The notes below the pieces were generated by a model. It ran no database searches and was not told the DNA's origin. It saw nothing but the letters and a program-made list of their open reading frames with translations. Below, in pieces: positions 4,367 to 53,426 of a stretch of 64,000 bases of DNA. A program made the position numbers and the translations under genes. This stretch comes from an uncultured Candidatus Saccharibacteria bacterium. Its GTDB lineage: Bacteria; Patescibacteriota; Minisyncoccia; Minisyncoccales; GWA2-38-27. Numbering within the stretch: the stretch's first letter is position 1; every line of letters begins with the position of its first letter. The stretch lies in contig CAZDXV010000002.1 in NCBI GenBank assembly GCA_964509645.1, positions 1,934 through 65,933 on the forward strand, written 5' to 3'.

Positions 4367-6874
4367 TTAATTGATTATTACTTTAAAGTTGTTGGAGTTA
4401 ACTTTAACCCTGTCTCCTCTTTTAAGCTCTCCCGACAAAAGAGCTGATGCTAATTTGTTTTCTACCTTGTCTTGGATAACTCTTCTCATTTCTCTGGCTC
4501 CAAACTGAGGGTTGTATCCCAGATCAACTATTCTTTCCTTAAGCTTTTCTGTTATCTCAAAATCTATCCCTTTACTTTCTAGATTCTCTTTCAAATCTTT
4601 AAGCATAAGCTCTGATATATCCAGTAGGTTTTCTTTGTTTAGGGGTCCAAAAACCACCACGGCATCAAAACGGTTTATAAACTCCGGCCTGAAAACTCTT
4701 TTATCAAAAAGGTATTCCAAAAGCTTCTTTTTAACTTTCTTCCATTCTTCTTTCTCTTTTATCGCCTTGAGAATTACCTTATATCCTGCATTGCTGGTAG
4801 CTATAATAATTGAGCTCTTGAAATCAACTCTCCTGCCCAATCCGTCTGTAAGGCGTCCTTCGTCTAAAACTTGTAAAAAAAGATTGAGAATATTAGGATG
4901 GGCTTTTTCTATCTCGTCTAAAAGAATAAGGGAAAAAGGATCTTCTCTTGCAGCTGTAGTTAAAATCCCCTCCTCTGAAGAAGACCCAATTAGGCGGGGT
5001 ATATCATCTGTATTCTGAAACTCAGACATATCAAGCCTTATCATTTTCTTTTCAGACCCAAAGTAAACTTCAGCTAAAGCTTTGGAGGTTTCTGTCTTTC
5101 CCACTCCGGTAGGCCCCATAAAGAGAAAAGCTCCCATGGGTCCTTTTCTTACTGTTATCTCAGACCTCGCTCTTCTTAAAGCCGCTGATACCCCCTCTAC
5201 GGCCTCTTTCTGGTTTATAATCCTTCTGTGAATAAGTTCCTCTAAATCAAGAAGAGTTTCTTTTTCCCCCGATTGAAGCTCTCCTACCGGAACTTCTGTT
5301 TTCTCTGTCACGATTCTGGCTACATGCTCTGGCAAAACCGTTCTTTCTTTTCTAGAGTTCATAAAAACTGAAACCTCATCCAGAATATCCAAAGCTTTTT
5401 CAGGAAAAGGAGAAGAAAAATAGCGATCGCATAAAGATATTATCTCCTTTAAAGCAGGATATGATATGAATATCCCGTATTTTTTTTCTAAATAAGGAGT
5501 AATTTTCTCCAAAAGATCGAGCGTTTCTTCACTCGATAATTCTGAAACTTCCACCTTCTCAAAGAGAGAAAGAATTGTGCTGTTTTTCTCTATGTTGCGG
5601 TGAAGGCCTTCGTAGCTTGTTATAGCTATGATCTGAAACTGAGGCAGATGGAGATATTTTGCTATTACCCCTGAGATGTCTATAACGCCCAGTTTCGCCT
5701 CCTGACCTATGTAATTATGGAAGTCATCTATAACAAGAACAACATTTCCAGCGTGAACAACTTCCCGAAATATCTTATCCAAAGTAGATTCCAATTCCTC
5801 AGAACTTTCAATCTGGGAAGCCAGAGAAACTATGTCCAGTTCTACTACTCTTTTAAAGTGGAGATCGGGCAGACTTTTTCCAAATAAACTTTTCTCTGCT
5901 AAACTGTAAACTACGCTCTTTCTTCCAGAGCCCGGCTCCCCTATCAGGAGAACGTTATTGATCTCCCTCCGAGATAAAATCCTTTCTACAGAATCAACTT
6001 CTTTTTCATGCCCCGTGAATTCAAGTTTTTCCTTTTTAAGAGCTCTGCTCAAGTCCACAGAGAAATTATCCAGATTGACTGTGTATCCGGCAGTCCACTC
6101 TCTAGCTAAGGTCTCTTTTTTAATCAAGCTTTCATAATCCCAAAACCTTTTTTGTTTTCCCTTTTTAAATTCCAGCCAGAAAACAACGCTGTCTATGTCA
6201 TCTCTTTTAATGTTAGCTCTTAAAAGAATTCTTTTAAAAACGCTGTCTGTTTCAGCTAAAGCCACAAGAAGATCCCCGACTTCGATTCTGCAATGATTTT
6301 CTTTTTCCGCCCTTGCTAAAGCTCTCTCTATTGCCTTGTCGAAGCTTTCCTGAGAAGACAGAGGCTCTTTTTCTTTAGCTTCTTGAAGAAGAGCTTTTTT
6401 TAGTTCTTCAACATTGATTAAAAGTCTGGAAAAAACAAAATTAAGTTCCGGGTTTTCTTTTAAAAGAAAGTAGAGAAGATAAGTTGAGGAAACAGAACCC
6501 TCAGACAATTTCAAAGCTCTATAAACAGCCTTGGCTGAATCAAAGCTTAGAAACTCTGCGAAGTTAAACGTTTCCGGCTTCAAAGAAGCTTCCTCAAGAG
6601 ATACTGCCAGTTTTGGATTCTTAAGCTTCTTTTTAAAAAAGGCTCCTTTCAGCCATACAGAAATTGATAGAGAAAAGAAAACCAAAGAAAAACCAAGCAA
6701 AATGCGAGAAAGATCAGCTGTAAATCTTTGGAGAATAAATCCGTAAAGAAATAGAATAAAAGAAACTAAAAAGAGACCCAAAAAGAAACTTCTCAAAAAC
6801 TCTGAAAACCTGAAAAGAGGAAATTTCTCCCATTTTAAGGCCTTGTATATTTTAGCTTCCTTTAAATTAAACAT
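4367..6874 (-). CDS. Membrane-anchored Hsp100/Clp-family double AAA+ ATPase (ClpA/B/C-like)
   Basis: Two N-terminal hydrophobic helices, then Clp_N-like repeats. NBD1 has GEPGSGRKS and VLVIDDFHN. NBD2 is canonical: GPTGVGKTE, LLDEIEKAH, ATSNAG, RPEFINRFD. Confidence 0.8.
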   Translation of the reverse strand: MFNLKEAKIYKALKWEKFPLFRFSEFLRSFFLGLFLVSFILFLYGFILQRFTADLSRILLGFSLVFFSLSISVWLKGAFFKKKLKNPKLAVSLEEASLKPETFNFAEFLSFDSAKAVYRALKLSEGSVSSTYLLYFLLKENPELNFVFSRLLINVEELKKALLQEAKEKEPLSSQESFDKAIERALARAEKENHCRIEVGDLLVALAETDSVFKRILLRANIKRDDIDSVVFWLEFKKGKQKRFWDYESLIKKETLAREWTAGYTVNLDNFSVDLSRALKKEKLEFTGHEKEVDSVERILSRREINNVLLIGEPGSGRKSVVYSLAEKSLFGKSLPDLHFKRVVELDIVSLASQIESSEELESTLDKIFREVVHAGNVVLVIDDFHNYIGQEAKLGVIDISGVIAKYLHLPQFQIIAITSYEGLHRNIEKNSTILSLFEKVEVSELSSEETLDLLEKITPYLEKKYGIFISYPALKEIISLCDRYFSSPFPEKALDILDEVSVFMNSRKERTVLPEHVARIVTEKTEVPVGELQSGEKETLLDLEELIHRRIINQKEAVEGVSAALRRARSEITVRKGPMGAFLFMGPTGVGKTETSKALAEVYFGSEKKMIRLDMSEFQNTDDIPRLIGSSSEEGILTTAAREDPFSLILLDEIEKAHPNILNLFLQVLDEGRLTDGLGRRVDFKSSIIIATSNAGYKVILKAIKEKEEWKKVKKKLLEYLFDKRVFRPEFINRFDAVVVFGPLNKENLLDISELMLKDLKENLESKGIDFEITEKLKERIVDLGYNPQFGAREMRRVIQDKVENKLASALLSGELKRGDRVKVNSNNFKVIIN

Positions 6875-7256
6875 TAAAAAGAATCAGTTTTAAACCGAAT
6901 AAAAGAAAGAAAAGGAGGAGAAAAGGAAGAATTATCCAAACAACAAGCATTAGGACTCCTGCAATAAAGACAACTATTTCAGCCAAAAAACCGGCGAGAA
7001 TAAGAAATGTCCTTAAAAAAGCTCCTATAACCCGGGACATCATATTAAAAGTAAAGGCGTTGAGATATTTTTTAAAACTAAATCCCCTTCCGTAAGAATA
7101 AAAATATTTATGCCAAGGAGAGAAAAATGTTTTAAGAAGAACAGGAAGAGAAAAATATTTAAAAGTAAAAACAAGAAAATTCCTCCATCCTTTGAGGATC
7201 TCTCTAATCGTCTCATAATAATACCAAGCTAAAAATTGAGATATTATAGAAGTCAT
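6867..7256 (-). CDS. Hypothetical polytopic membrane protein (129 aa)
   Basis: Highly hydrophobic C-terminal half. Its stop overlaps the Clp-like start by 8 nt (AATGTTTAA). Confidence 0.5.
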   Translation of the reverse strand: MTSIISQFLAWYYYETIREILKGWRNFLVFTFKYFSLPVLLKTFFSPWHKYFYSYGRGFSFKKYLNAFTFNMMSRVIGAFLRTFLILAGFLAEIVVFIAGVLMLVVWIILPFLLLFFLLFGLKLILFNV

Positions 7257-7361: not shown

Positions 7362-7964
7362 ATGAGGTGGATACAGAAGAACCTAGCTAATCTGATAACA
7401 GGTTTCGGTTTTTTTCTTGTCTTGTGGCTAATTATGGTAATCATTTACGACCCCGAAAGGCTCTGGCTGGCGTTTATTCTTTTCCTTGTTGCGGGAATTA
7501 CCGACTTCCTGGACGGGAAAATAGCAAGAAAGCTCAACATTACCAGTGACGTAGGAAAGCTTCTAGACAGAATCAGAGATAAGTTTCTCGTCTGCTCTGT
7601 CTTTCCTCTTCTTTTCTGGTACCATTGGCCAAAAGAAGAGGACTTCTTTTTTCCGACCACCATCACCCTAGCTTTGGTAGCAGGCATTATGATTGTTGAG
7701 CTTTTCCTCCTTGTAGCCGGTTTTGTCGGCACGATAAAGAGATGGAATGTAGGAGCCAGCCAGGCAGGAAAAGTAAAAATGTTTGCTGAATTTATTGTAA
7801 TTGCTTTCTGGTTTTCTTCCTTGGCAGTAGACAAATATTTCCAACTGAATCTATTTTTTTATCTTGTCTATATTCTCGACGCTATGCTTGCCGTGGTTCT
7901 CTTTTTTTCAATCAAGAGCCTCGGAGGCTATTGCCACCGCTACGAAATAAAGAGCTCGCCCTAA
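7362..7964 (+). CDS. pgsA: CDP-alcohol phosphatidyltransferase (PgsA-like)
   Basis: Signature DGKIARKLNITSDVGKLLDRIRDK fits DG(x2)AR(x8)G(x3)D(x3)D. Multiple TM helices. Confidence 0.85.
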   Translation: MRWIQKNLANLITGFGFFLVLWLIMVIIYDPERLWLAFILFLVAGITDFLDGKIARKLNITSDVGKLLDRIRDKFLVCSVFPLLFWYHWPKEEDFFFPTTITLALVAGIMIVELFLLVAGFVGTIKRWNVGASQAGKVKMFAEFIVIAFWFSSLAVDKYFQLNLFFYLVYILDAMLAVVLFFSIKSLGGYCHRYEIKSSP

Positions 7965-8106: not shown

Positions 8107-9873
8107 ATGCAGCTTTTAGAACTACACTTTAATCCCAAAAAAGAAGATAAGAGTTTTGACTCTTTTATCTTTGAACCCGAAAACATCTACGAAAAAAGAC
8201 TGGGAAGTTTGTATTTGGTGGGAGAAATTAAAAACGCCACGCCCAACAGCCAAAAACTATTAGCCGGACTAGCTAAAGAGATAAAGAAGAACTACTATAA
8301 ATTGGCTTCTAAGTCTCCTGACAAAGCCCTGGCGGGAGCTTTAAAAAAAGCCAATGACTTCCTTTCAGAAGAAGTAAAAAAAGACAACGTAAGCTGGCTT
8401 GGAAATTTAAACTTTGCTGTTTTATCTTTAAAAAATTTCAAGCTTAATTTTACAGAAACAGGGAACATTAAAGTAATACTGATAAGAGAGGGGCAGATTA
8501 CAGATATTAGCAAGGAATTAGAGCTTCAGGAGATAGAGCCCTATCCTTTAAAGATATTTTTCAATACGATTTCAGGAAAATTAGCAGAAAAAGACCTCCT
8601 TCTGATCCTGACAAAAGAGATTTACGGCTTTCTAAATGAAGAAGGAGTTTTGAATAAAATAGCTCAGCTGGAAAGCTATCGGCCGAAAGAAATCAAGAAA
8701 CAGATTCCTGCCAAACTTTTTACTAAAGGAAGAGGATCTAAAATCTCGGGGGTTTGTCTAGCAGTCTTTCTTAAAGAAGAAAAAACTTTTTCGGGAAAAG
8801 AGGTTTATAACCCAGAGAAAAAATCCTCCTTTTCTAAAATATTCGATCCCGTTATAAGGCCCGTTAAAAAAACAAAAAAGAAACTTTTAAAAATAAAGCC
8901 TTCTTTTAAGAAAAAGTCCCAAAAAAAGAAACTTCCTAAAAGGGGGGAGAAGTTTTTATTCTACTCGAATATAGCTTCGGCCATAACAGCTGTTAGAAAC
9001 TCAATTAAGGTTTTTAAAATTAAAAGAAATATTCTTCTAATATTATTTTTAATTATAATCCTCTTAACAGGGTTTCTTTTATTTAAGGGAGCTCAACTTA
9101 ACAAAAACACAACTGATATTCAAAACTTTCAAGAAATAGAAAATAAAATAAAAAAAGCTGAAAATTTTCTTGTATTTAAAGAAACAAAAGAAGCTGAAAG
9201 TTTGTTAAAAGAAGCTTGGAATCAGCTTTCTTCTTTAGAGTCAAAAAAAGCTCAAGAGCTGAAAAAAAGAACTGAAAAAAATCTTAAAGAAATTTACAAA
9301 TTTCAGGAAATAGAAAATTTAAAAATAGCAGAAAACCCCCCTTCTTTCTCTCCCCCTGAATTTTCGCAATTTATCCCTCCTCCTTTTGAATTCAGCTTTG
9401 ATGAGTTTGAATATTATCTTTCTAATATTTACTTTTTAGATAAAAAAAGTTGCGAAATTGTAAAATATAATAAGACAGGAGAAAACGGCTGGGGGCCTCC
9501 TCTGGATTGGTTAAAAGAAAAAAGCGACTGTTCAAATCCAAAATCCCTAGCAATCGACGGCTCAATATGGGTTTTAAACGGCGACAACTCTATTCTTCGT
9601 TATTATCAGGAAAACTTTGAGGAAAAAATAGCAATTGAATTATTTCCCTCTGCAGAAAACATAGAAAAAATAGCAACAAAAAAAGATTTTCCTTATCTTC
9701 TTCTTTTAGAGCCCGATAAAAAAAGAATAATCGTATCTGATAAAAAAGGAAAAATAATAAAACAAATATACAGCAAAGAGCTTGAAAATCCACAGGACCT
9801 TAAGATATCAAAAGATAGTAAAAGCATCTTTATTTTAGATAAAGATAGAATATACAGAATAGAAGCGTTTTAA
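8107..9873 (+). CDS. Hypothetical membrane protein: N-terminal PP2C/SpoIIE-like fold (tentative), central TM helix, C-terminal repeat/beta-rich ectodomain
   Basis: Long ORF with a lysine-rich linker, TM segment ILLILFLIIILLTGFLLF and a C-terminal beta-strand-like region. PP2C likeness rests only on weak pattern resemblance. Confidence 0.55.
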   Translation: MQLLELHFNPKKEDKSFDSFIFEPENIYEKRLGSLYLVGEIKNATPNSQKLLAGLAKEIKKNYYKLASKSPDKALAGALKKANDFLSEEVKKDNVSWLGNLNFAVLSLKNFKLNFTETGNIKVILIREGQITDISKELELQEIEPYPLKIFFNTISGKLAEKDLLLILTKEIYGFLNEEGVLNKIAQLESYRPKEIKKQIPAKLFTKGRGSKISGVCLAVFLKEEKTFSGKEVYNPEKKSSFSKIFDPVIRPVKKTKKKLLKIKPSFKKKSQKKKLPKRGEKFLFYSNIASAITAVRNSIKVFKIKRNILLILFLIIILLTGFLLFKGAQLNKNTTDIQNFQEIENKIKKAENFLVFKETKEAESLLKEAWNQLSSLESKKAQELKKRTEKNLKEIYKFQEIENLKIAENPPSFSPPEFSQFIPPPFEFSFDEFEYYLSNIYFLDKKSCEIVKYNKTGENGWGPPLDWLKEKSDCSNPKSLAIDGSIWVLNGDNSILRYYQENFEEKIAIELFPSAENIEKIATKKDFPYLLLLEPDKKRIIVSDKKGKIIKQIYSKELENPQDLKISKDSKSIFILDKDRIYRIEAF

Positions 9874-11090: not shown

Positions 11091-12248
11091 TTACTTCTCA
11101 ATGCACATCAATCTCTGCCTTAGATTGCAGTATTTTCCTTGGGAGGGACTGAGTTTGGTTTCTGTTTCTCCGAGTCCTAAGGCTCCAGAAGCTACTGCAT
11201 CTGTAGATTTTCCCTGGGGCGTATAACAGGTTGGAAAGGAGGGCTTTGAAGCACCAACAGGTACAGGATAGCCCTCTACAAACTTGTCTGATCTCGTCCA
11301 ATTCTGACAGGTAGTTGTAAAGGTGTATTTTTCTGCCAGGTTCGCATAAGGATCGGCGGCAACAGAGGCTATAATTTCGCAATTCTTTTTACTCTGACCC
11401 GTAACCCGCCCCAGCCATACTTCGCCAAGCTTCTGATAGAAAGAGTTTCCCAGTCTTTTTTGATTTAAATCTTTCTCGTCTGAAAACTTCTTTAAAAACT
11501 CGTTAATATTCTTACCCAAAACCCTATGGCACGTATCTCCTCTTAAAAGAACAGCTTCTGCCTGAGCGTCAACATACGTCCCTTCCGTTCCTCTTTCTGT
11601 GTCTTCTAGTCTTTGAAGCGCCGTCTCGTTATCTCCGTCTCCACCTAGAAAAGCCATCCACTCTCCTTCGTATCCCAAATTATCAGCTTCTGATTGACAC
11701 TTCTCGTCTGCTCCAATCATTCCCCCCAAATCACCCGTATATTTTTCTTCTGTAATAAAGACCTTCCTTAGGTCAGGGTAATCGCTTGGAATATAGGGCC
11801 ATTCGTTTTGAAGAGAAATAGCATCGCATGTAGCAAGTTCCGGGAAAACGATTGCAAAAGCTCCATCAGAATAATCTATTACATTCCCCTCCTGCCAAGG
11901 ATATTCAAAAATAGCAACCCAGTAATCATCTCTGTATTCCTGGCCGGGGTGTATTTTCCAGCTGTATTCTTCATTTCCCGCTGCAATGTTTTTTGCTATC
12001 CATTTAGGCTCTGATCCTTTAAAAAGGACTATTCCCACTTTGTCTACTCCTCTTGATTTCCATTTTATATTATATGTCTCCCCTATCTGCCACCCCTCTC
12101 TTCCATTAGGAGAGATTATTTCCATATTTTTAGTAAAATGGGTATAAAAAAGATAAAACAAAAAACTAAACACGATTAAAACTGCAACTATTATAACGTA
12201 TAAAAGATTTCTCTCTATTGTGAATTTATCCAAAAAAGAAGTGTTCAT
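11091..12248 (-). CDS. Secreted/anchored protein with Kre9/KNH-like N-domain and DUF1554-like Cys-rich C-domain (tentative)
   Basis: N-terminal TM helix. SPNGREGWQIGETYNIKWKSRG pattern. GDLGGMIGADEKCQSEADNLGYEGEWMAFLG resembles the DUF1554 core. Confidence 0.5.
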   Translation of the reverse strand: MNTSFLDKFTIERNLLYVIIVAVLIVFSFLFYLFYTHFTKNMEIISPNGREGWQIGETYNIKWKSRGVDKVGIVLFKGSEPKWIAKNIAAGNEEYSWKIHPGQEYRDDYWVAIFEYPWQEGNVIDYSDGAFAIVFPELATCDAISLQNEWPYIPSDYPDLRKVFITEEKYTGDLGGMIGADEKCQSEADNLGYEGEWMAFLGGDGDNETALQRLEDTERGTEGTYVDAQAEAVLLRGDTCHRVLGKNINEFLKKFSDEKDLNQKRLGNSFYQKLGEVWLGRVTGQSKKNCEIIASVAADPYANLAEKYTFTTTCQNWTRSDKFVEGYPVPVGASKPSFPTCYTPQGKSTDAVASGALGLGETETKLSPSQGKYCNLRQRLMCIEK

Positions 12249-12252
12249 ATTT

Positions 12253-12873
12253 TTATTTTTGTAACAGGCAGGGAGGATTTACTTTCTGCTCCAGCCTGTC
12301 TCTTATAATTTTTACTTCCTCTAGACTGTACCTTTCCACGGGAGTCCAAAGAAAAGATATTTTAAGGTCTTTGCTGCAGTTTTCAATCCAGCATGATCTT
12401 CCTCTTGCGCTATCAAAATTTATTCTACTCCCTTCCCCTATATATATTTTATCATATCCTTCCGCTTTTGGACAAAGAATAGCAAAAACTGATTTGTTTT
12501 CAATATAGCCAACATCTTTTAAGCTGTAAGGCCCTCTGAAATAAAGATTTTCTATTTCTATATAATCTGGCTGGGGAGGAAAACCTATAGAGGCAGAAGC
12601 AGGAAATTCCCCTCTTCCTTTTCTGGCTCCTGACAAATACCATCTCTGAAGAAGATAAGTTACAAAATAAAAGACCAAGACCACTAAAGCTGTTATAGAA
12701 AAAACAATAAAACCCCTTATTAAGATCTTCCTTCCTTTTTGAAGCTTGTCTACGGTTCCTTTGGCGGTTAGAAGAATTATCCCGCCCCAAAAACACAATA
12801 CAAAGCTCGCAAAAAATGACAGAGCAAAGATTATAGCTGGAAGATTGGCAACAACATCAAAAGATTGATTCAT
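12253..12873 (-). CDS. Hypothetical membrane protein (2 TM helices plus C-terminal soluble domain)
   Basis: 206-aa ORF overlapping the DJ-1 gene by 4 nt (ATGA). No recognised family. Confidence 0.5.
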   Translation of the reverse strand: MNQSFDVVANLPAIIFALSFFASFVLCFWGGIILLTAKGTVDKLQKGRKILIRGFIVFSITALVVLVFYFVTYLLQRWYLSGARKGRGEFPASASIGFPPQPDYIEIENLYFRGPYSLKDVGYIENKSVFAILCPKAEGYDKIYIGEGSRINFDSARGRSCWIENCSKDLKISFLWTPVERYSLEEVKIIRDRLEQKVNPPCLLQK

Positions 12874-13391
12874 TGTAATTTGCTTATTATTTTTTTAGCA
12901 AAAACTTCAGCTAAAGACGGCCCTGAAGCCGTAATAATATTTCCGTCCTCTGTTAAAGAATCTGGCGTATAGATAGCACCACTGCTCTCTAAAATCTTTA
13001 CCGCTGATTTATCCATATTACTTCTCCAAACTGTAGCTTTTCTTCCTTTTAAAACGCCTGCCCTAGCCAGAATAGTTGGCGCTATGCAAATAGCTCCTAA
13101 AATCTTTTCTCCATCAAGAGTCTCTCGGGCTATTCTGTGGCAATTTTCATTATCAATCATCTTATGGGCTCCGGGGCCTCCTAAGAATAGAACGGCGTCA
13201 AACTCTAAAACATTAAGTTCACTGATTAATATTTCCGCTTCAGTCTCTCCTCCCAAACTACCCATGGCTTTTCCTTTAGAAGTGCTTACCGTTTTTGTTT
13301 CAAAGCCTGCTTTTTCTAGTTTTTCTTTGGGTATAAAGTATTCTTCATCTCTGAAGTCCTGAAAGGCTATAATTAAAGCTACTTTTGCCAT
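12870..13391 (-). CDS. DJ-1/PfpI family protein
   Basis: Nucleophile-elbow motif AICIAP, FLGGPGA, and typical length. Confidence 0.85.
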   Translation of the reverse strand: MAKVALIIAFQDFRDEEYFIPKEKLEKAGFETKTVSTSKGKAMGSLGGETEAEILISELNVLEFDAVLFLGGPGAHKMIDNENCHRIARETLDGEKILGAICIAPTILARAGVLKGRKATVWRSNMDKSAVKILESSGAIYTPDSLTEDGNIITASGPSLAEVFAKKIISKLQ

Positions 13392-31624: not shown

Positions 31625-32314
31625 TTAAACTTTTTTAGCAGAAAGTCCATCTTCTGAAACCTCAAAGTCATCAAATATTACAGGGACTCTTTTCTGAACA
31701 TCCTTTAAAAGATTAACCATTACTCTTCTTATCTCCCAGTGAGCCGCTGGCCCGCACCTCAAAGCAAAAATATGGCGCCATTCTCTGAAATTTGCCGTAA
31801 TAACAATCTGAGCCTTAATGCCTATGGGCAGAGTCTGTCTTGCATCTTGGGGAATCCATCCCTTTTCTCTTAAGCCCCTGTACATTTGCTCGTTTAAATC
31901 AACCCAATCCTGAAAAGAGACCGGCATACTATTTCCATCCGGAAGCTTTAAATCAACAAGTTTTTCGTCTTTTTCTTTGTCGGGGGGGATAACAACCTTA
32001 AATTTGCTTTCATCTACATATCTGGTAGATTCTTGGGTATAGGCCGCTAATCTATGGCGAACTAGCTCATGAGTAAATCCACGGCAAACATCATCAAACT
32101 CTACTGTCATACAAGAATGTTCCAAAACTGATTCATGTCCCCTTTTCCTAAGCATTTCCACAAACTTAGCTGCTGATTCGTGAGTAATTTTATCTCTGCT
32201 CTGATAGGCCGTTCTGCCCGCTACTTCAATTAGCTGAAGAGGATTCTCCCCCTCAGCTCCTGTCATAATAGATAATATTTTATGAATTCCTTTATTTTTT
32301 AAAATCTCTGCCAT
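31625..32314 (-). CDS. thyX: FAD-dependent thymidylate synthase ThyX
   Basis: ThyX signature RHRLAAYTQESTRY (RHRxxxxxS). Confidence 0.9.
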   Translation of the reverse strand: MAEILKNKGIHKILSIMTGAEGENPLQLIEVAGRTAYQSRDKITHESAAKFVEMLRKRGHESVLEHSCMTVEFDDVCRGFTHELVRHRLAAYTQESTRYVDESKFKVVIPPDKEKDEKLVDLKLPDGNSMPVSFQDWVDLNEQMYRGLREKGWIPQDARQTLPIGIKAQIVITANFREWRHIFALRCGPAAHWEIRRVMVNLLKDVQKRVPVIFDDFEVSEDGLSAKKV

Positions 32315-32316
32315 AA

Positions 32317-32934
32317 TTATTTTAAAAATTTTGAAGTTATAAGTTTCTTTACCTCTTCAAAAATATCTTCAATAGATTTTTCTCCGTCAATAGCTATAAC
32401 ATCATCAAACATCTTGGGAAATTTTTTGTAGTAGTTAAGGACCTTAGAAAGCTTTTTTTCTTTTTCAAATAAAGTTTTGTCTATGCCTCTTTTTTCTATC
32501 CTTTCGATACAAGTTTTGGCTGAAGCTATGAAAATTAAAGTAATGTCAGGAAGCAAAAAATCATTGTTTTTTTCTATTAAATTATTCAAATCCAGCCCCT
32601 CGGCTGCCCCATAAGCTAAAGTAGAGAAAAAATATCTATCTAAAAGAACATACTTTCCTTTTTTCAAAGCGGGGATCACAACTTTTTCAAGATTTTCCTT
32701 CCTATCTTGAATAAAAAGATCTTGAAGCTCTCCAGCTTCAACCTCTATTTCTTTCTCTAAAACTTTTTTTATTTTTTCCCCGGGTACAGTATAAGTAGTA
32801 GGCTCTTTTGAAATCAATACTTCAATCCCTCTTTTTGATAAAAAATCAGCTATTAACTCCAGCTGAGTGCTATGGCCCGAACCGTCCAATCCTTCTGAGA
32901 CTACAAACTTTCCGGGATAATTGTTTTTTATCAT
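32317..32934 (-). CDS. tmk: Thymidylate kinase with atypical P-loop (GSGHST)
   Basis: EGLDGSGHSTQ replaces the usual EGxDGxGK(S/T)T. The DRY motif (LLDRYFFS) is present. Confidence 0.8.
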   Translation of the reverse strand: MIKNNYPGKFVVSEGLDGSGHSTQLELIADFLSKRGIEVLISKEPTTYTVPGEKIKKVLEKEIEVEAGELQDLFIQDRKENLEKVVIPALKKGKYVLLDRYFFSTLAYGAAEGLDLNNLIEKNNDFLLPDITLIFIASAKTCIERIEKRGIDKTLFEKEKKLSKVLNYYKKFPKMFDDVIAIDGEKSIEDIFEEVKKLITSKFLK

Positions 32935-32939
32935 TTTTT

Positions 32940-33437
32940 TTATTGTTTACTGTATTCTTCTACGCTATTATCTACAACATCGAGCTTAACTCCTGCGCTT
33001 TTAAAAAGCTCCAAAGAAAGCTTGTCAGCATGATATCTTTTCTGAGCAACCACCCTCTTAATACCTACTCTTACTATTCTCATAGCGCAATTATAGCAAG
33101 GAACCATTTTACAGTAAATAGTAGCTCCCTTGATCCTTACACCATCTTTTGCGCACTGTAAAATAGCGTTTTCTTCGGCATGAAGAGTTCTTACACAGTG
33201 CTGAGATTTATTGCCTTTTTCATCAATTACAGTCTTCATCATATGGCCCACATCATCACAATGAGGCTGACCCGGAGGAGATCCGACATAGCCTGTAGCC
33301 AAAATAGTGTTCTCAGAACTTACGATAACAGCTCCGCTGCGACCCCTATCACAGGTAGCCCTCTTTCCTATGGGGTTGATTAAACTTAAAAAATACTCGT
33401 CCCAAGTAGGTCTTATATATTTTGAGTCTTTTTCCAT
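32940..33437 (-). CDS. dCMP deaminase (ComEB-type)
   Basis: Motifs HAEENAI and PCYNCA. I prefer the start at MEKDSKY (33437), which avoids overlap with rplK. Confidence 0.85.
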   Translation of the reverse strand: MEKDSKYIRPTWDEYFLSLINPIGKRATCDRGRSGAVIVSSENTILATGYVGSPPGQPHCDDVGHMMKTVIDEKGNKSQHCVRTLHAEENAILQCAKDGVRIKGATIYCKMVPCYNCAMRIVRVGIKRVVAQKRYHADKLSLELFKSAGVKLDVVDNSVEEYSKQ

Positions 33438-33450
33438 AATTAAAAGGGTA

Positions 33451-33873
33451 TTACTCAATAGTAATACCCATATTTTTAGCCGTTCCTTCAATTATTTTAA
33501 CTGCTTGGTTTAAATCATCTGTATTGAGATCAGGCATCTTTTTCTTGGCTATCTCTTCTAGCTGGGCGCGAGAAATCTTAGCTACCTTCTCTTTATTGGG
33601 AACCCCCGAGCCCTTTTCAATTCCTAAAACCTTCCTTAAAAGCTCTGAAGCTGGTGGCTGCTTTAATTCAAAACCATAGCTTCTATCTTCATAAACTGTA
33701 ATCTCTACAGGAATAACAAAACCTGACTGTTCTTTTGTAGCATCGTTGAATTTCTGACAGAATTCTGAAATATTTATTCCGTGGGGAGCTAAAGCAGGCC
33801 CTACTGGAGGAGCAGGCGTAGCTTTACCAGCTTCTATTTGAAGTTTCACAACAGATTTTACTTTCTTTGCCAT
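33451..33873 (-). CDS. rplK: 50S ribosomal protein L11
   Basis: [26 protein letters not shown] motif. Confidence 0.95.
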
Positions 33874-33875
33874 AA

Positions 33876-34421
33876 TTAAAGTTTTTTAATTTGTAATGAA
33901 TCCAGCTCAACAGGAGTGTCCCTGCCAAACATATTAACTAGAACCTTAACTTTTCCTTTTTCTTCGTCAATCTCTGAAACCTTTCCGTCAAAATCTTTAA
34001 AGGGGCCGTCTGTTATCTTAACAGAATCCCCTATTTTAAACTCAATCTTGTGCTGAGGATCTTCAACGCCCATTCTCTTTTTAAGGCTATCTATTTCCTT
34101 TTGGGAGATAGGGACCGGAGTTGTGCCAACCCCAACAAAACCTGTAACATTCGGGGTATTTCTTACTATATACCAAGAATCGTCTGTTACCATCATTTCC
34201 ACCAAAACATATCCCGGATATATTTTTTCTTCTACCACTTTCCTCTTTCCGCTTTTTATCTTAATCTTTTTTTCTTTGGGAACTATAACATCGAATATCT
34301 TATCCTCCACTCCCAAAGACTCAACCCTTTGCTTTAGGTTTTTAGCCACTGCATCTTCATACCCTGAATAAGTATGTATAACGTACCAATTTCTCTCTTG
34401 GGGTAATTTTTGTTTTGGCAT
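33876..34421 (-). CDS. nusG: Transcription elongation factor NusG
   Basis: [14 protein letters not shown] start and KOW motif [18 protein letters not shown]. Confidence 0.95.
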
Positions 34422-34685: not shown

Positions 34686-36632
<1,947 letters not shown>

Positions 36633-39688: not shown

Positions 39689-39718
39689 ATAAAAAAGCCA
39701 CCGTTTAGAGCGGTGGCT
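39689..39718 (-). terminator. Rho-independent terminator of the pyr cassette
   Basis: 8-bp stem agccaccg/cggtggct, 7-nt loop, T-run on the minus strand. Confidence 0.7.
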
Positions 39719-39725
39719 GGTTTGT

Positions 39726-40436
39726 TTAAGCTGTCAATTCGTTCCAGTGGGTTCTGGGTCTTAAGGCCTTAGAACCCTGAGCACAAAGAGGACAATCATT
39801 GGCCTCTACTGCCCAAACTGCTCTCTCTAAAAGAGAAACCACGCAAATCCCGTTTTCATAATGAACCGGGAGCTCTGGAGGACGATGAACAACAGAACCG
39901 ACAACAGGATGGAAAAAAACATTCGCCCTGTTGTCCTTTTTTATTGCCTCCCTCACTTTCATTGTCGTTCCAAGCGTAGTAATCAACTCCTCAATTTGGA
40001 GAATCCTAGAGCCTTCGGGAATTTGCCAATCCTTCCAGATCATCTTTTTAGGATCGCTGGGATCCTTTCTCGGGAATCCGTGGTTTGCGCCCAAGATTCT
40101 CGCAACCTCGTAAGAAAAAGCAATCGCAGAATAAGGCGAACCGACTACCCAGTCCACTCCTTCTGCAATCGTCGTTTCTAAATTATAAGCAAGTTGACGA
40201 GCAAAAAGACTGCTAATTTTAGTATCGCAAAGAACTCTCGGACAGTTAAAAAATCCATTGCTGTGCTTGCCTGAGGTAAGCTCGGCATGGGGTTTTTCAG
40301 AACTTCCATTGTGAAGCCATACGGCTCCGTATTCCTGGAAAACTTCTAGAATCTCCTCTTCTGTTAGGGGATCAGAGAGAATCTTTGAAGTATCATAGCT
40401 TAAGGCTATGATCTTGTCGACAAGAGCCCTTTTCAT
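39726..40436 (-). CDS. pyrE: Orotate phosphoribosyltransferase-like protein
   Basis: ELTSGKHSNGFFN (F-x-L-x-SG-x-x-S type) and PRPP loop ILQIEELITTLGTT. I prefer the start at MKRALV (40436), which has AAGGAG 8 nt upstream. Confidence 0.65.
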   Translation of the reverse strand: MKRALVDKIIALSYDTSKILSDPLTEEEILEVFQEYGAVWLHNGSSEKPHAELTSGKHSNGFFNCPRVLCDTKISSLFARQLAYNLETTIAEGVDWVVGSPYSAIAFSYEVARILGANHGFPRKDPSDPKKMIWKDWQIPEGSRILQIEELITTLGTTMKVREAIKKDNRANVFFHPVVGSVVHRPPELPVHYENGICVVSLLERAVWAVEANDCPLCAQGSKALRPRTHWNELTA

Positions 40437-40437
40437 C

Positions 40438-41208
40438 TTATTTCTCCTTTCTGACAGTTTTAGCAATTTCCTCGGCAATTTTCCTGGCAGCATCTTCCGA
40501 AGTACCGATCTCCGGCGGAGGTTGGCGAATAGGCCTGCCGATAATAATGTAATCAGCTCCTGCCTTCACAGCGTCAGCGGGAGTCATAATTCTTTGCTGA
40601 TCTCCCTTAGCCGCCCAAGAAGGACGAATTCCGGGAGTGGCCGTAAGAAGACTTTTATATCTCACCCTGCTCCTGATTAATTTAAGTTCCTGAGGAGAGC
40701 AGATAATTCCGTCGGCTCCAGCATCAAGAAGCATATCGGCAAACTGAAGCACCTTGGAACCAGGAGCAGCTCCGAAAATAGATTTACACGCTTCTTCGTC
40801 AAGAGAAGTCAAAACAGTTACTCCGAAAAGAAGGGAGCTACCCTTGTTTTCTACCGCTTTGACAATAGCCTCAACTCCGGCAGAAGCATGAAGATTCAGC
40901 ATCTTCAAACCCATTCTTTTCACCTGAGCCGTAGCTTTCCCGACAGTACTGGGAATATCATCAAACTTACCATCCCATAGAACATTTCCATCTAACAAGT
41001 AAAAAAGTCGGCGAATATTGAGAAAGTTATTCATCGCTGAGTCTCTCTTCTCTGGCGGACCAAGAGACGCTAACATAGCGGTAATAAACTCCAGTCCGAT
41101 CTTAAAACATCCCACTAACGGAAACAGTTTTTGAACTAAATCCATTGCTTTCTCCGGCGAATCAACATCAAGAGCGTGAATAATTTTTTGATGGGGTTTC
41201 AGTTCCAT
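40438..41208 (-). CDS. pyrF: Orotidine 5-prime-phosphate decarboxylase
   Basis: ALDV... and WDGKFDDIPSTV (DxKxxDIxxT). C-terminal IIIGRPI. Confidence 0.85.
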   Translation of the reverse strand: MELKPHQKIIHALDVDSPEKAMDLVQKLFPLVGCFKIGLEFITAMLASLGPPEKRDSAMNNFLNIRRLFYLLDGNVLWDGKFDDIPSTVGKATAQVKRMGLKMLNLHASAGVEAIVKAVENKGSSLLFGVTVLTSLDEEACKSIFGAAPGSKVLQFADMLLDAGADGIICSPQELKLIRSRVRYKSLLTATPGIRPSWAAKGDQQRIMTPADAVKAGADYIIIGRPIRQPPPEIGTSEDAARKIAEEIAKTVRKEK

Positions 41209-41209
41209 C

Positions 41210-42079
41210 TTACCTCTCCTTTCTCTTCTGTTTCATGTCTCTCCGAACAAATGCCGTAGGGCGCCAGGGATAAGGGATGAAGATAGAACCAAAGCTTATA
41301 GCTTTAGCTCCTAAATCCCTTAGTTCCTGAATATCCTCAAAGTCCCAAACGCTGGAACCTATCACCGGAATTGAAAACTTTGAAGAAAACATTTCAACAA
41401 AGTCCCAAGTAAAAGGAGAAGCCGCTTTTCCCGAAACTCCTCCGCCCCCTAAATGAGCCAGAGGGCTTTTTTTGCCGGGATAAACAATGTGCCAAGGCAC
41501 GCTGTTTATAGAAACAGCTTCTATTACCCCCTCTACCTCAGGAATAATTACCTCCACGTTATGAATAACAGAAAGCTTTAAGATCAATGGGAATCTGGAT
41601 GATTTCTCTGCTGCTTGACAGCACCGAACAATGGTTTCTGTATTTTCCAAAACTCCTTCTTTAGTATTGGGACAGGAAGCATTCAGCTCCATGCCGACCA
41701 AGTCAAAACGGTTTAAGGCCAAACACATCTTAAAGACTTCGTCCGGATCTTCGCAGAAGACAGATCCAACCAACGGTATCTCTCGAGAAACGGCAGGCCC
41801 TATTTCTCTGCACCACCATTCGTACCCTTTGTTTGTAAGGCCTACAGAGTTAACTGTTCCCTCTTTAATGAGGCGAACGCAGCCAAAAGGATTATACCAC
41901 CTTAAATTACCTTTTCTCGGCTCGTAAGTAAGCGTCTTTATTACAACCGTAAATAGCTTGGGATCAATCAGTTTCATCCATCTCAAAGGCCATTCCCAGA
42001 ACCAGCCCTTGCCGTCAAAAGCAAGAGCTCCAGAAGCCACCATGTAATCAAACTTGTGTTCGTTTGACAGCTTTATCAT
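41210..42079 (-). CDS. pyrD: Dihydroorotate dehydrogenase family 1-like protein
   Basis: KTLTYEPRKGN, NSVGLTNKG, MELNASCPNT, LILKLS and GGGGVSGKA motifs. Confidence 0.75.
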   Translation of the reverse strand: MIKLSNEHKFDYMVASGALAFDGKGWFWEWPLRWMKLIDPKLFTVVIKTLTYEPRKGNLRWYNPFGCVRLIKEGTVNSVGLTNKGYEWWCREIGPAVSREIPLVGSVFCEDPDEVFKMCLALNRFDLVGMELNASCPNTKEGVLENTETIVRCCQAAEKSSRFPLILKLSVIHNVEVIIPEVEGVIEAVSINSVPWHIVYPGKKSPLAHLGGGGVSGKAASPFTWDFVEMFSSKFSIPVIGSSVWDFEDIQELRDLGAKAISFGSIFIPYPWRPTAFVRRDMKQKRKER

Positions 42080-42115
42080 TCTTTTCTCCTTTTTTCAAAG
42101 AACCAAAGATCTTTT

Positions 42116-42143
42116 ATCCTACTATATTTATCCCCTCTGTCAA
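42116..42143 (-). promoter_or_regulatory. Candidate pyr cassette promoter TTGACA-16-TAGGAT, followed by a leader with AAGGAG
   Basis: Minus strand reads TTGACAgaggggataaatatagTAGGAT...aaaaaggagaaaagaATG. Confidence 0.4.
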
Positions 42144-42181: not shown

Positions 42182-42252
42182 TGCGGGGTGGAGAAGTAGT
42201 ATCTCGCGAGGCCCATAACCTCGAGACGTCAGTGCAACTCTGGCCCCCGCAA
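42182..42252 (+). tRNA. Initiator-like tRNA-Met (anticodon CAT) with non-canonical C33, A18 and G55
   Basis: Closely parallels E. coli tRNA-fMet in the acceptor (xGCGGGG/CCCCGCA-A) and D-stem, including A11:U24. Anticodon loop CCCATAA, D-loop AGTAGTA, T-loop TGCAACT. Confidence 0.6.
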
Positions 42253-42266
42253 CAAATTAAGCCGTA

Positions 42267-42337
42267 GCCGGGGAGTAGAATGGCATCTAAAGCCGTCTCA
42301 TAAGCGGTTAAAGTGGGTTCGATTCCCGCCCCCGGCA
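42267..42337 (+). tRNA. tRNA with CAT anticodon (elongator Met or Ile2), compact and slightly irregular
   Basis: Acceptor GCCGGGG/CCCCGGC, D-loop ATGGCA, anticodon loop CTCATAA, T-arm GTGGG-TTCGATT-CCCGC. It has A at position 8 and one extra nucleotide at the D/anticodon junction. Confidence 0.65.
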
Positions 42338-42341
42338 CATT

Positions 42342-42415
42342 GCGGGCGTAGCTTAGCGGCTTAAAGCGCCGCCCTGTCACGGCGGAGACCGTGGGTTCAA
42401 ATCCCATCGCCCGCG
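42342..42415 (+). tRNA. tRNA-Asp (anticodon GTC)
   Basis: Canonical hand fold: GCGGGCG acceptor, D-loop AGCGGCTTA, anticodon loop CTGTCAC, T-loop TTCAAAT, discriminator G. Confidence 0.9.
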
Positions 42416-42420
42416 CAAAC

Positions 42421-52088: not shown

Positions 52089-53426
52089 ATGACAAAAAGA
52101 AAAAGGAAAATTTTAATAGCTGTCTTAGCGCTGTTTTTTGCTGTTGCGGCCCCCTTAACTATATTTTATTCTTTAGGCTGGCGTTTTGACTGGAGCAAAA
52201 AAGAAATAACAAGGCCTGGCATTTTCTTTTTTAAAGTAAAACCAAATTCTGCCAAAGTTCTTATAAACGGAGAGTCAGAAGACAAAACCGATTTTTTCTT
52301 CGGTTCTGTTGTTATAGACAACCTTCTCCCCAAAAAATACCAGGTGCTAATAAAAAAAGAAAACTACCATAATTGGGGAAAAAACCTTGAAATAAAAAGA
52401 GGAGAAGTGACAGAAGCTAAAAATATTATCTTAATACCTCAAAATCCAGATTTTGAAAAAATATCCCAAAACACAGAGAGTTTTTACTTTAAAAACGGAG
52501 AAATAATTTTAAAGGAAGAAGAAGAAAGCTGGGCCCTAAAATCGTATGACCTTAAAAACAATGTAAAAAGCCTTTTGACAGAAGATTTTTCAAAAAAAGA
52601 ATCTGATTTAATAGATATTCTTTTTTTTGAAGAAAGCTCAGATCTTTTGGCAAAACTTTTTGAAGGAGAGAGCTTCAGCTACTATATTATAAAAAGAAAC
52701 CCTCTGGAAATAATACCCCTTGATTTTCTTCCCAGTCCGGAAAAGGTTTACTTAGAAAAAAACAGCCTTTTTGTCCTTAAACAGGGAAAACTAAGAAAAG
52801 CCGACCTGCCAGAAAAAGAACTTTCAGAACCTCTTGTAGAAGATATTGTTTCTTTAGAAACAGAAAAGGCAGAGGTATTTTATCTTGACTCCGAAGGGCT
52901 TCTGTTCCAAAGCGATTTGTCTTTCCAAGAGAAAACAAAGCTTAACAGAAAGGCCTTTCCTATTAAAAAAGAAACAGAATATTCTTTAAAGGTATCCCCT
53001 CCCCATTTCTTTTTAAAGGAAAAAAACTCTCTTTATTACTTAAAAGACCAAGTTTTTAAAAAAATAGCAGATAATATTAAAGATTTTAAATTCTCCCCAG
53101 ACAGAAAAAAAATAGCTTATTCCAACAACGGAGAACTCTGGCTTTACATTTTGGAGGACACTAACGAATATCCAAAAAGAAAAGCGGGAGAAAAAGTTTT
53201 TATCACCCGCTTGTCAGAAGAAATAAAGGATGTTTTCTGGTACACAAACCATTATCTGGTTTTCAGTACGGCAAAAGATATTAAAATAGCTGAGACCGAC
53301 GACCGGGATAAAATAAACATGGTTTCTTTAGCCCAGTTCAAAAATCCTGAAATTTTTTGGGAAAGCCCTGAACTGTATTTTCTTTCAGAAAATAATTTCT
53401 ACATTTCAGAAACTCTAATCCCTTAA
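52089..53426 (+). CDS. Membrane-anchored PEGA-domain protein with TolB-like C-terminal beta-propeller region (tentative)
   Basis: N-terminal TM helix. PEGA-like KVLINGES...LLPKKYQVLIKKENYHNW. C-terminal FSPDRKKIAYSNNGELWLY. Confidence 0.55.
   Translation: MTKRKRKILIAVLALFFAVAAPLTIFYSLGWRFDWSKKEITRPGIFFFKVKPNSAKVLINGESEDKTDFFFGSVVIDNLLPKKYQVLIKKENYHNWGKNLEIKRGEVTEAKNIILIPQNPDFEKISQNTESFYFKNGEIILKEEEESWALKSYDLKNNVKSLLTEDFSKKESDLIDILFFEESSDLLAKLFEGESFSYYIIKRNPLEIIPLDFLPSPEKVYLEKNSLFVLKQGKLRKADLPEKELSEPLVEDIVSLETEKAEVFYLDSEGLLFQSDLSFQEKTKLNRKAFPIKKETEYSLKVSPPHFFLKEKNSLYYLKDQVFKKIADNIKDFKFSPDRKKIAYSNNGELWLYILEDTNEYPKRKAGEKVFITRLSEEIKDVFWYTNHYLVFSTAKDIKIAETDDRDKINMVSLAQFKNPEIFWESPELYFLSENNFYISETLIP

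Follow-up and report, generated by a model that had tools for sequence, protein, structure and literature searches.

Among dihydroorotate dehydrogenases (DHODs), class 2 enzymes have a serine in place of the catalytic cysteine base. In E. coli and Salmonella, a hairpin in the leaders of pyrC and pyrD sequesters the Shine-Dalgarno (SD) sequence, depending on where transcription starts, which is nucleotide-sensitive. In translation systems of the Bacteroidetes type, which are SD-poor, the anti-SD is kept and SDs are found at a few genes only. The locus that we compare with these systems is a pyrD-pyrF-pyrE-type cassette on the minus strand of a 64,000-nucleotide stretch of DNA (the window) from an uncultured Candidatus Saccharibacteria bacterium (assembly GCA_964509645.1, contig CAZDXV010000002.1).

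Patescibacteria, or CPR bacteria (CPR, candidate phyla radiation), are routinely portrayed in metabolic reconstructions as missing the greater part of the de novo pathway for pyrimidines (PMC11974145; bioRxiv 10.64898/2026.09.16.751625). On dihydroorotate dehydrogenase or orotate in CPR, we found nothing specific in the literature, only general statements on incomplete nucleotide synthesis. The cassette is a standard late-pyrimidine operon made of under-annotated, CPR-typical subfamilies of DHOD and of orotate phosphoribosyltransferase (OPRT). We consider it probable that this pyrimidine operon, pyrD-pyrF-pyrE, is typical of its CPR lineage and has been inherited vertically, and that its SDs are conserved rather than imported.

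Conserved site and expression signals of the operon

The loci of relatives used for comparison include L005 (GCA_964609075.1), L006 (GCA_964648705.1), L007 (a JGI metagenome) and that of a more distant relative, L091; other L numbers denote further loci. In the window, positions 42143-39690 of the minus strand form a single transcription unit, in which three open reading frames (ORFs) are accompanied by their own promoter, leader and terminator. The features are as follows (OMP, orotidine monophosphate; PRT-X, the OPRT-like protein in the pyrE position):

42138..42143, minus strand: -35 hexamer TTGACA (promoter match 10/12, 16-nt spacer), kept in L005 and L006
42116..42121, minus strand: -10 hexamer TAGGAT, kept in L005 and L006
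42080..42112, minus strand: 5' leader of ~30 nt with SD1 (AAGGAG, 42091-42086), near-identical in L005 and L006
41210..42079, minus strand: pyrD-type gene, DHOD-like protein of 289 aa (PF01180, 60 bits)
41206..41221, minus strand: pyrD/pyrF junction AAGGAGAGGTAAGATG, with SD2, TAA stop, 1 nt and ATG
40438..41208, minus strand: pyrF, type-1 OMP decarboxylase of 256 aa (PF00215, 130 bits)
40434..40449, minus strand: pyrF/pyrE junction AAGGAGAAATAAGATG, with SD3, TAA stop, 1 nt and ATG
39726..40436, minus strand: pyrE-type gene, PRT-X of 236 aa (best match TIGR01367, 56 bits)
39690..39718, minus strand: intrinsic terminator, an 8-bp G+C-rich stem AGCCACCG/CGGTGGCT followed by TTTTTT
42182-42416, divergent from the cassette: tRNA-Met, tRNA-Met, tRNA-Asp

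The promoter, leader, terminator and AAGGAG sites that a sequence-only reading of this DNA had described were all recovered on the minus strand, together with the form common to both gene junctions, AAGGAGnnnTAAGATG, and the cassette is indeed a self-contained, separately signalled unit; the leader is present as well, but at ~30 nt rather than the ~35 nt first given. AAGGAG lies 6-7 nt ahead of the ATG of each of the three genes (6 nt for SD1). Transcription would start a few nucleotides past the -10 hexamer, and the operon would be expressed from its own sigma70-type promoter through this short leader and three canonical strong SDs. A 255-aa version of the PRT-X ORF, read from 40493, is not taken as the real start because it overlaps pyrF. 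None of the three ORFs is disrupted, and all are strongly conserved and closely coupled to one another, which rules out that the cassette is a pseudogene or relic. Rfam, searched at permissive E-values over the cassette and at gathering scores over the whole window, returned tRNAs only, with neither a PyrR site nor a riboswitch.

Absence of the cassette from relatives was looked for by synteny; L005, L006, L007 and the more distant L091 all carry it at the identical slot. The order shared by L005-L007 is RRF-M50-ProRS-MreB-GatC-GatA-hyp169-tRNAs, then the pyr genes, then PheS-PheT-GyrB-SecE-NusG-L11-dCMP deaminase-Tmk-ThyX (in the window, pheS starts at 39636, downstream of the cassette). In L091, the order is MreB-GatC-GatA-hyp-pyrC-pyrD-pyrF-PRT-X-x-PheS-PheT, with PheS 67% and MreB 78% identical to the window proteins. 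Across these four loci the flanking proteins are 47-95% identical to those of the window. In L005-L007 the figures are 58-95% for flanking proteins and 57-81% for cassette proteins, i.e. the cassette proteins diverge about as much as their faster-evolving neighbours. The sequence-only reading had also remarked that the cassette abuts a tRNA cluster. It does, but the tRNA-Met/Asp neighbours are kept in L005, L006, L007, L009 and L024 and are thus a conserved neighbour, not an integration scar. Among the genes of the window and L005-L007, no integrase, transposase or other mobility gene flanks the cassette, and no repeats were seen beside it, direct repeats not having been given a dedicated search.

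The closest relatives of all three cassette proteins are CPR proteins. The DHOD-like family comprises more than 1200 clusters at 90% identity, of which every informatively named one is patescibacterial; in species-representative genomes it is found in many CPR classes, and members of lower identity are present in Armatimonadota and Delta/Pseudomonadota-labelled metagenome-assembled genomes (MAGs). PRT-X (298 representatives at 50% identity, E<=1e-30) was seen in CPR only among the genomes examined here. In a neighbour-joining tree, which has a long-branch root and no support values, the DHOD-like protein of the window groups with those of L005 and L006 inside a CPR clade. The grouping of the three proteins with vertical CPR orthologs, which the sequence-only reading had named as grounds against its own proposal, is given for the DHOD-like protein by a tree, and for PRT-X and PyrF by closest relatives and synteny only. 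Phage carriage was not seen for PRT-X, which has no relatives in IMG/VR. Four DHOD-like relatives (37-41% identity; L087-L090) lie there on contigs of 61-343 kb classed as viral, which may be huge phages or misclassified cellular contigs; they are uninformative on the origin of the window cassette.

The cassette stands apart from its surroundings by its translation signals. An SD-like 4-mer was searched at -20..-4 of 69 gene starts in the window and any such 4-mer was found at about 10 of the 69. AAGGAG precedes 3/3 cassette genes versus 0/65 other window genes. Internal genes of the window are typically joined as TAAnnATG, and operon-first genes have a -10-like hexamer (TATAAT, TAAAAT or TAGAAT) ending 6-9 nt before the ATG, as is the case for pheS (39636), 6867-7256, 8107-9873, 12870-13391, 52089-53426 and others. 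Because the hexamer lies so close to the ATG, leaderless mRNAs may be widespread here, and the operon-first genes of the window are probably among them. The earlier description of host operon-first genes as SD-less and starting shortly after a -10 box is borne out, with a spacing of 6-9 nt and a contrast stronger than it had claimed.

This difference recurs in relatives. In L005, L006, L007, L091 and the distant L001, AAGGAG(G) precedes the pyr genes and not their neighbours; in L091 all four pyr genes have an SD and the neighbours have none. In other CPR classes, aAAGGAGGtg, which is fully complementary to a canonical 16S tail, stands before many DHOD-like genes. A hexamer SD was counted at 23/71 pyr genes versus 14/309 others across 31 CPR loci (Fisher p 5e-10, a statistic that ignores phylogenetic non-independence and relies on crude start-codon calls). 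Since distant CPR lineages have conserved SDs on their pyr genes, those of the cassette are not evidence of import; the SD-led format would be a conserved, presumably selected, trait of pyr genes in CPR genomes that are otherwise SD-less or leaderless. The 16S rRNA of a relative, L010, ends in GGATCACCTCCTTTCT, with the anti-SD intact. In that locus (L010:1-1860) the Rfam 16S 3' part lies at 1-931 and the 3' end GGATCACCTCCTTTCT at ~1841-1857; since the two lie apart, an insertion of ~900 nt near the 16S 3' end is likely. The anti-SD motif is reported to be missing from about half of the Parcubacteria, a group that overlaps with the one lacking uL1 (PMC9297842). In the window (31625-34421, minus strand), dCMP deaminase, tmk and thyX come directly after nusG and rplK, in place of rplA-rplJ-rplL, as in L005-L007; secE stands before nusG, and this rplA-less order fits the uL1-lacking group of Parcubacteria, linked to anti-SD loss in PMC9297842.

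For the leader of the window, the predicted fold is a two-tier hairpin in which SD1 and the spacer are paired (-7.9 kcal/mol, z -2.1, equalled by 9/200 shuffles). As a general trait, such an SD-pairing fold was not recovered: the leaders of L001, L009, L012 and L041 fold no better than shuffles (z -1.3 to +0.35). Because these distant CPR loci show no such fold, we give little weight to an SD-sequestering hairpin and regard it, with low confidence, as a local observation.

Several of these observations count against strict vertical descent. The occurrence of the DHOD-like family in Armatimonadota and in Delta/Pseudomonadota-labelled MAGs means that transfer between phyla happened at some point, and xenologous replacement has occurred within the slot (pyrD in L007 and L091; pyrF of type 1 versus type 2). 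The other SD-bearing genes in CPR loci tend to be accessory and slightly GC-rich (+0.037), so that an SD combined with a higher GC content could mark old acquisitions. (One gene of this description is a D-Ala-D-Ala-ligase-like gene at L005:3256-4269, which has a perfect AAGGAG SD and a GC content of 0.45, where its neighbours have ~0.32.)

A rival reading is an ancient acquisition, in which a pyrC-pyrD-pyrF-pyrE block was gained from SD-using bacteria by an ancestor of much of the CPR, or by several CPR lineages through exchange among them, and was mostly vertically inherited thereafter, its SD-led, slightly GC-richer format being kept because the block evolved as a self-sufficient expression unit. 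We find this history unlikely, although a good deal is compatible with it: the Armatimonadota and Delta/Pseudomonadota-labelled DHOD-like members branch outside most CPR sequences in the neighbour-joining tree, the pyr genes are ~10-fold enriched in strong SDs (often the full aAAGGAGGtg), other SD-bearing genes at these loci look accessory and slightly GC-rich, both pyrD and pyrF have been swapped in place for another type, and the short type of pyrC is also found in an archaeal contig. However, the tree, given its long-branch root and missing support values, does not give the direction of transfer, the non-CPR DHOD-like members mostly have no SD, and the excess of G+C at third codon positions (GC3) is absent from the L001 and L091 cassettes. 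Moreover, SDs that were not under selection would be lost over such distances, which leaves them unexplained by history alone. The conservation of slot and neighbours in L005, L006, L007 and L091 contradicts a recent import, and vertical inheritance of a CPR operon is the probable reading.

The encoded enzymes and their pathway

The assignment of the cassette to the conversion of dihydroorotate to orotate, OMP and UMP (uridine monophosphate) is well supported, as judged from motifs, folds, OMPdecase::PRT-X fusions, linkage to pyrC and pyrB, and the replacement of the DHOD-like gene in its slot by a canonical PyrD; what we infer are the enzyme activities themselves and the electron acceptor of the DHOD-like protein. 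That the last three steps of UMP synthesis are encoded, as the sequence-only reading had it, is most likely so by family, fold, active-site motifs and gene linkage. A class-1-like flavoenzyme with a cysteine base and without PyrK would oxidise dihydroorotate to orotate, PRT-X, a divergent OPRT of the HP1257/Thermus type, would add phosphoribosyl pyrophosphate (PRPP) to give OMP, and a type-1 OMP decarboxylase would yield UMP.

The DHOD-like protein matches PF01180 with 60 bits, above the Pfam cut-off of 27, and its best sequence relative in the PDB, found with a profile of 24 family members, is the PyrD of L. lactis DHODB (E 1e-21). Its catalytic loop, ELNASCPN, aligns with the NISCPN loop of 1ep1; in the 24 members N133, S135 and C136 are invariant and P137 and N138 nearly so. 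Likewise, K48, N77, N133, N138, K168 and N192 are invariant or nearly so in the family and align with DHODB residues (we take the orotate/FMN-binding residues of L. lactis to be K43, N67, N127, N132, K164 and N193; FMN, flavin mononucleotide). The best 41 Foldseek matches in the PDB to the AlphaFold2 model (pLDDT 86.5) are all DHODs, led by DHODB PyrD, and the TIM-barrel model gives TM scores of 0.75-0.78 to 5ue9, 5ksw and 1ep3. No PyrK (FAD/2Fe-2S) partner was found among the called genes of the window cassette, L001, L005, L006, L007 and L091, and no conserved partner gene cluster accompanies the DHOD-like gene across 60 loci; at Dehalococcoidia loci its neighbours are rpoB and rpoC.

The product of ORF2 is, by its sequence, an ordinary type-1 OMP decarboxylase. 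PyrF matches PF00215 with 130 bits (cut-off 27) and TIGR01740 with 126 (cut-off 92), and falls slightly under the cut-off of NF001273 (181 vs 193 bits). It aligns over its full length with the V. cholerae enzyme 3ldv (E 2e-35), including the motifs DxKxxD (DGKFDDIP), VLTS, TPGIRP, DQxR (DQQR) and IGRPI.

The PRT-X of the window has no Pfam match, PF00156 included. A profile of its family matches the H. pylori OPRT HP1257 (4paw) over nearly the full length (E 6e-21), the C-terminal CPLC included, and the top 20 Foldseek PDB matches of its AlphaFold2 model (pLDDT 94.4) are all OPRTs, 4paw first, followed by adenine phosphoribosyltransferases. Its PRPP loop is LQIEELITTLGT, in which E149, E150, L151, T153 and T157 are invariant in 28 members. 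Both cysteines of CPLC are invariant across the family; the EE of the PRPP loop and the CPLC, which had been noticed in the window protein, are therefore traits of the whole PRT-X family.

Gene linkage points the same way. PRT-X adjoins a pyrF of type 1 (window, L005-L007, L009, L024, L029, L091) or of type 2 (L001, L041), and is fused to OMP decarboxylase in P0275, P0298 and P0310 (50%-identity representatives, 466-486 aa). In L001, the DHOD-like protein and PRT-X are joined to a type-2 OMP decarboxylase that has no detectable similarity to the type-1 enzyme of the window. The DHOD-like gene lies directly beside pyrC-type genes in 9 CPR loci: a short PyrC is encoded directly upstream of it in L009, L011, L024, L029, L038 and L057, and in L041, L064 and L070 the gene directly downstream of it is pyrC_dimer-like. 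In Uhrbacteria loci, pyrB-pyrI-pyrC are found near the DHOD-like gene. In the syntenic operons of L007 (8237-9157) and L091 (6083-7009), the pyrD slot is occupied by a canonical class-1B-type PyrD, with no pyrK nearby. That of L007 scores 373 bits against NF005574 (cut-off 269) and that of L091 has DHO_dh and Dus Pfam matches; both are only 27-28% identical to the DHOD-like protein of the window. The pyrD of L007 and L091 is thus an in-place xenologous replacement. Two side observations concern the same enzymes: P0511 is a PyrC::OMPdecase fusion, another natural fusion of late pyrimidine enzymes in a CPR-type module, and the L001 locus, from a Patescibacteria genome, encodes a second phosphoribosyltransferase paralogue after pyrF (11728-12444, 238 aa, with CPLC, 25% identical to PRT-X).

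Some features of the two divergent proteins do not favour this assignment. The DHOD-like protein falls below the curated class-1 cut-offs (NF005574, 97 vs 269 bits; TIGR01037, 81 vs 270), the best match of PRT-X, TIGR01367 (pyrE_Therm), reaches 55.6 bits for a cut-off of 150.25, and the GxGG loop that binds the FMN phosphate is altered (I-G-P-S-V-W in the family vs I-G-M-G-G-V in DHODB, with a one-residue gap). NCBI records call the members of both families 'hypothetical protein'. Together with the second phosphoribosyltransferase paralogue in the L001 cluster, these features would suit a pair of non-pyrimidine paralogues catalysing, for example, dihydropyrimidine or other flavin oxidoreduction and phosphoribosyl transfer to another base. 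We hold this very improbable, since the orotate-binding Asn/Lys set and the catalytic Cys are invariant, the DHOD-like protein is interchangeable in situ with a canonical PyrD, both genes are linked to two unrelated subtypes of OMP decarboxylase as well as to pyrC and pyrB, PRT-X is found fused to OMP decarboxylase, and the best structural matches are OPRTs and DHODs.

As the sequence-only reading had stated for carAB, pyrB and pyrC, no gene for the earlier pathway steps lies near the cassette: tblastn with CPR queries found no pyrC, pyrB or pyrI in the 64-kb window, and among 30 window ORFs scanned with Pfam, which comprised every ORF of >330 aa that synteny had not already identified, there was no carB, carA, pyrB or pyrC; the sole ORF of >1000 aa encodes DnaE. 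pyrC lies directly upstream of pyrD in L009, L024, L029 and L091, and is not at the slot in the window, L005, L006 or L007. The ancestral order was probably tRNA-Met/Asp, pyrC-pyrD-pyrF-pyrE, pheS-pheT, with pyrC lost from the slot in the lineage of the window. As pyrC would have been lost from the operon, the cell would obtain its dihydroorotate either through a pyrC located elsewhere in the genome or from its surroundings, the latter as in the scavenging, partial pathway that the sequence-only reading had supposed; that the DHOD gene is so strongly conserved suggests that dihydroorotate, and not orotate alone, is an input. Members of the short PyrC family abound in Patescibacteria (>4000 matches at E<=1e-20). 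Among the NCBI-only matches to the short CPR PyrC profile that were followed, L091 and an archaeal contig (L092) were recovered, and neither the assembly of the window nor that of a sister. L092 (GCA_053532935.1) encodes an archaeal histone and ribosomal protein L15e besides its short CPR-type PyrC, which indicates that this type is shared with archaea.

More generally, we put forward, with low confidence, that CPR carry a distinct, largely unannotated late-pyrimidine module, composed of a PyrK-independent class-1-like DHOD, a divergent OPRT and often a short PyrC, and placed under a conserved SD-dependent, leadered translation regime within genomes that are otherwise SD-less and leaderless. 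If so, with this module many 'nucleotide-auxotrophic' CPR could build UMP out of carbamoyl-aspartate or dihydroorotate, under a dedicated, possibly nucleotide-sensing, translational control exerted via the retained anti-SD tail. The DHOD-like protein and PRT-X lie under curated cut-offs and are 'hypothetical' in NCBI, yet they are widespread and conserved in CPR genomes. Their recognition would change the calls of pathway completeness for many genomes, and would narrow what these symbionts need from their hosts to dihydroorotate or carbamoyl-aspartate rather than nucleotides. The difference between the pyr operon, which is led by SDs, and its SD-less, leaderless neighbours is reproducible across lineages and also offers a handle on how translation initiation is partitioned in CPR ribosomes.

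Base composition and other observations in the window

The sequence-only reading had drawn its proposal of horizontal acquisition from a composition and translation signals that differ from those of the surrounding genes, and both differences hold now that GC, GC3 and codon usage have been computed. The GC content of the cassette genes is 0.441-0.449 versus a gene mean of 0.368 (sd 0.026), i.e. z ~3 and ranks 1-3 of 68 window genes; the contrast is real, but smaller than the hand counts had suggested (45-53 vs 30-35 percent). Their GC3 is 0.39-0.44 versus 0.319 (z 1.5-2.6) and their synonymous codon usage is a moderate outlier (z -2.3 to -2.8). Amino-acid content (few F/Y/M/I/N/K, many G/A/R/P) accounts for about half of the GC excess.

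Two figures tell against vertical inheritance: the z of ~3 for GC, and a GC3 that is 0.06-0.09 over what amino acids and host codon preference predict, a pattern to be expected of an acquired block. The GC excess recurs, however, in the cassettes of L005 and L007, which are presumably too diverged for synonymous sites to keep the memory of a donor, and we therefore read it as a standing constraint; the excess is absent in L001 and L091.

A recent transfer from a non-CPR, SD-using, higher-GC donor, whose promoter, leader, SDs and codon usage had been retained, would explain these GC ranks and codon-usage scores, the fact that no other window genes combine AAGGAG with a leader, and the adjoining tRNA genes, but is extremely improbable given the same slot and neighbours in four relatives despite flanks at 47-95% identity, the conservation of the tRNA neighbours themselves, the exclusively CPR close relatives of all three proteins, the lack of visible mobility genes or repeats, and the recurrence of SDs and GC excess in relatives at distances where synonymous sites are presumably saturated, leaving no un-ameliorated donor signal. 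Composition and 'foreign' signals alone thus gave a false call of recent horizontal transfer at this locus, which synteny corrected.

A better candidate for horizontal transfer than the pyr cassette is the CDP-alcohol phosphatidyltransferase gene at 7362-7964 (plus strand), the strongest codon-usage outlier of the window (z -4.3, GC3 0.48); it stands alone on the plus strand, surrounded by minus-strand genes, and AAGGA precedes its ATG. Downstream of the cassette, gyrB (34686-36629, minus strand) is intein-free and encodes 647 aa, while the sister genes contain two inteins (Pfam Intein_splicing twice; L005:13805-18682, 1625 aa; L006:14680-18903, 1407 aa). Of the sister genomes, only one has a DUF6922/AbiEii toxin-antitoxin-like pair inserted between pheS and pheT (L006:11813-12710).

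Comparison with known systems

With class 1 DHODs (L. lactis DHODB PyrD, 1ep1/5ue9; class 1A DHODA, 1dor), the DHOD-like protein shares the fold, the N-x-S-C-P-N Cys loop, the Lys/Asn residues and an operon setting with pyrC, pyrF and pyrE. It differs from them in being only 24-33% identical, in forming its own long-branch clade, in lacking PyrK, and in having family-specific conserved residues (W88, W89, C90 and C67) and a C-terminal YPWRPT motif. PyrF has every catalytic and phosphate-binding motif of type-1 PyrF (V. cholerae 3ldv, E. coli 1eix), and it differs by a 12-residue insertion after the first helix.

PRT-X and the HP1257/Thermus-type OPRTs (TIGR01367; 4paw) have in common the type I phosphoribosyltransferase fold, the H-x-x-L-x-S-G-x-x-S-N hood motif, CPLC, a PRPP loop in which an acidic pair precedes I/L-T-T-x-G-T, and a position next to pyrF. 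By contrast, PRT-X is 22-24% identical to 4paw, has EE instead of ED or DD, and possesses an extra N-terminal helical segment of ~40 aa and a conserved W-x-E-L-T-G C-terminus.

As regards expression, the window resembles the E. coli/Salmonella pyrC and pyrD systems in having a short leader with a predicted hairpin that pairs the SD of the pyrD-type gene, but this hairpin is AU-rich, weak and not recovered in distant CPR loci, and there is no evidence of start-site switching; we offer the likeness as an analogy only. As in SD-poor systems of the Bacteroidetes type, most window genes are SD-less, a small set of genes has strong SDs, and the anti-SD is kept, as read in relative L010 only; the SD-retaining set is here a metabolic pyr operon, instead of genes under ribosomal-protein autoregulation.

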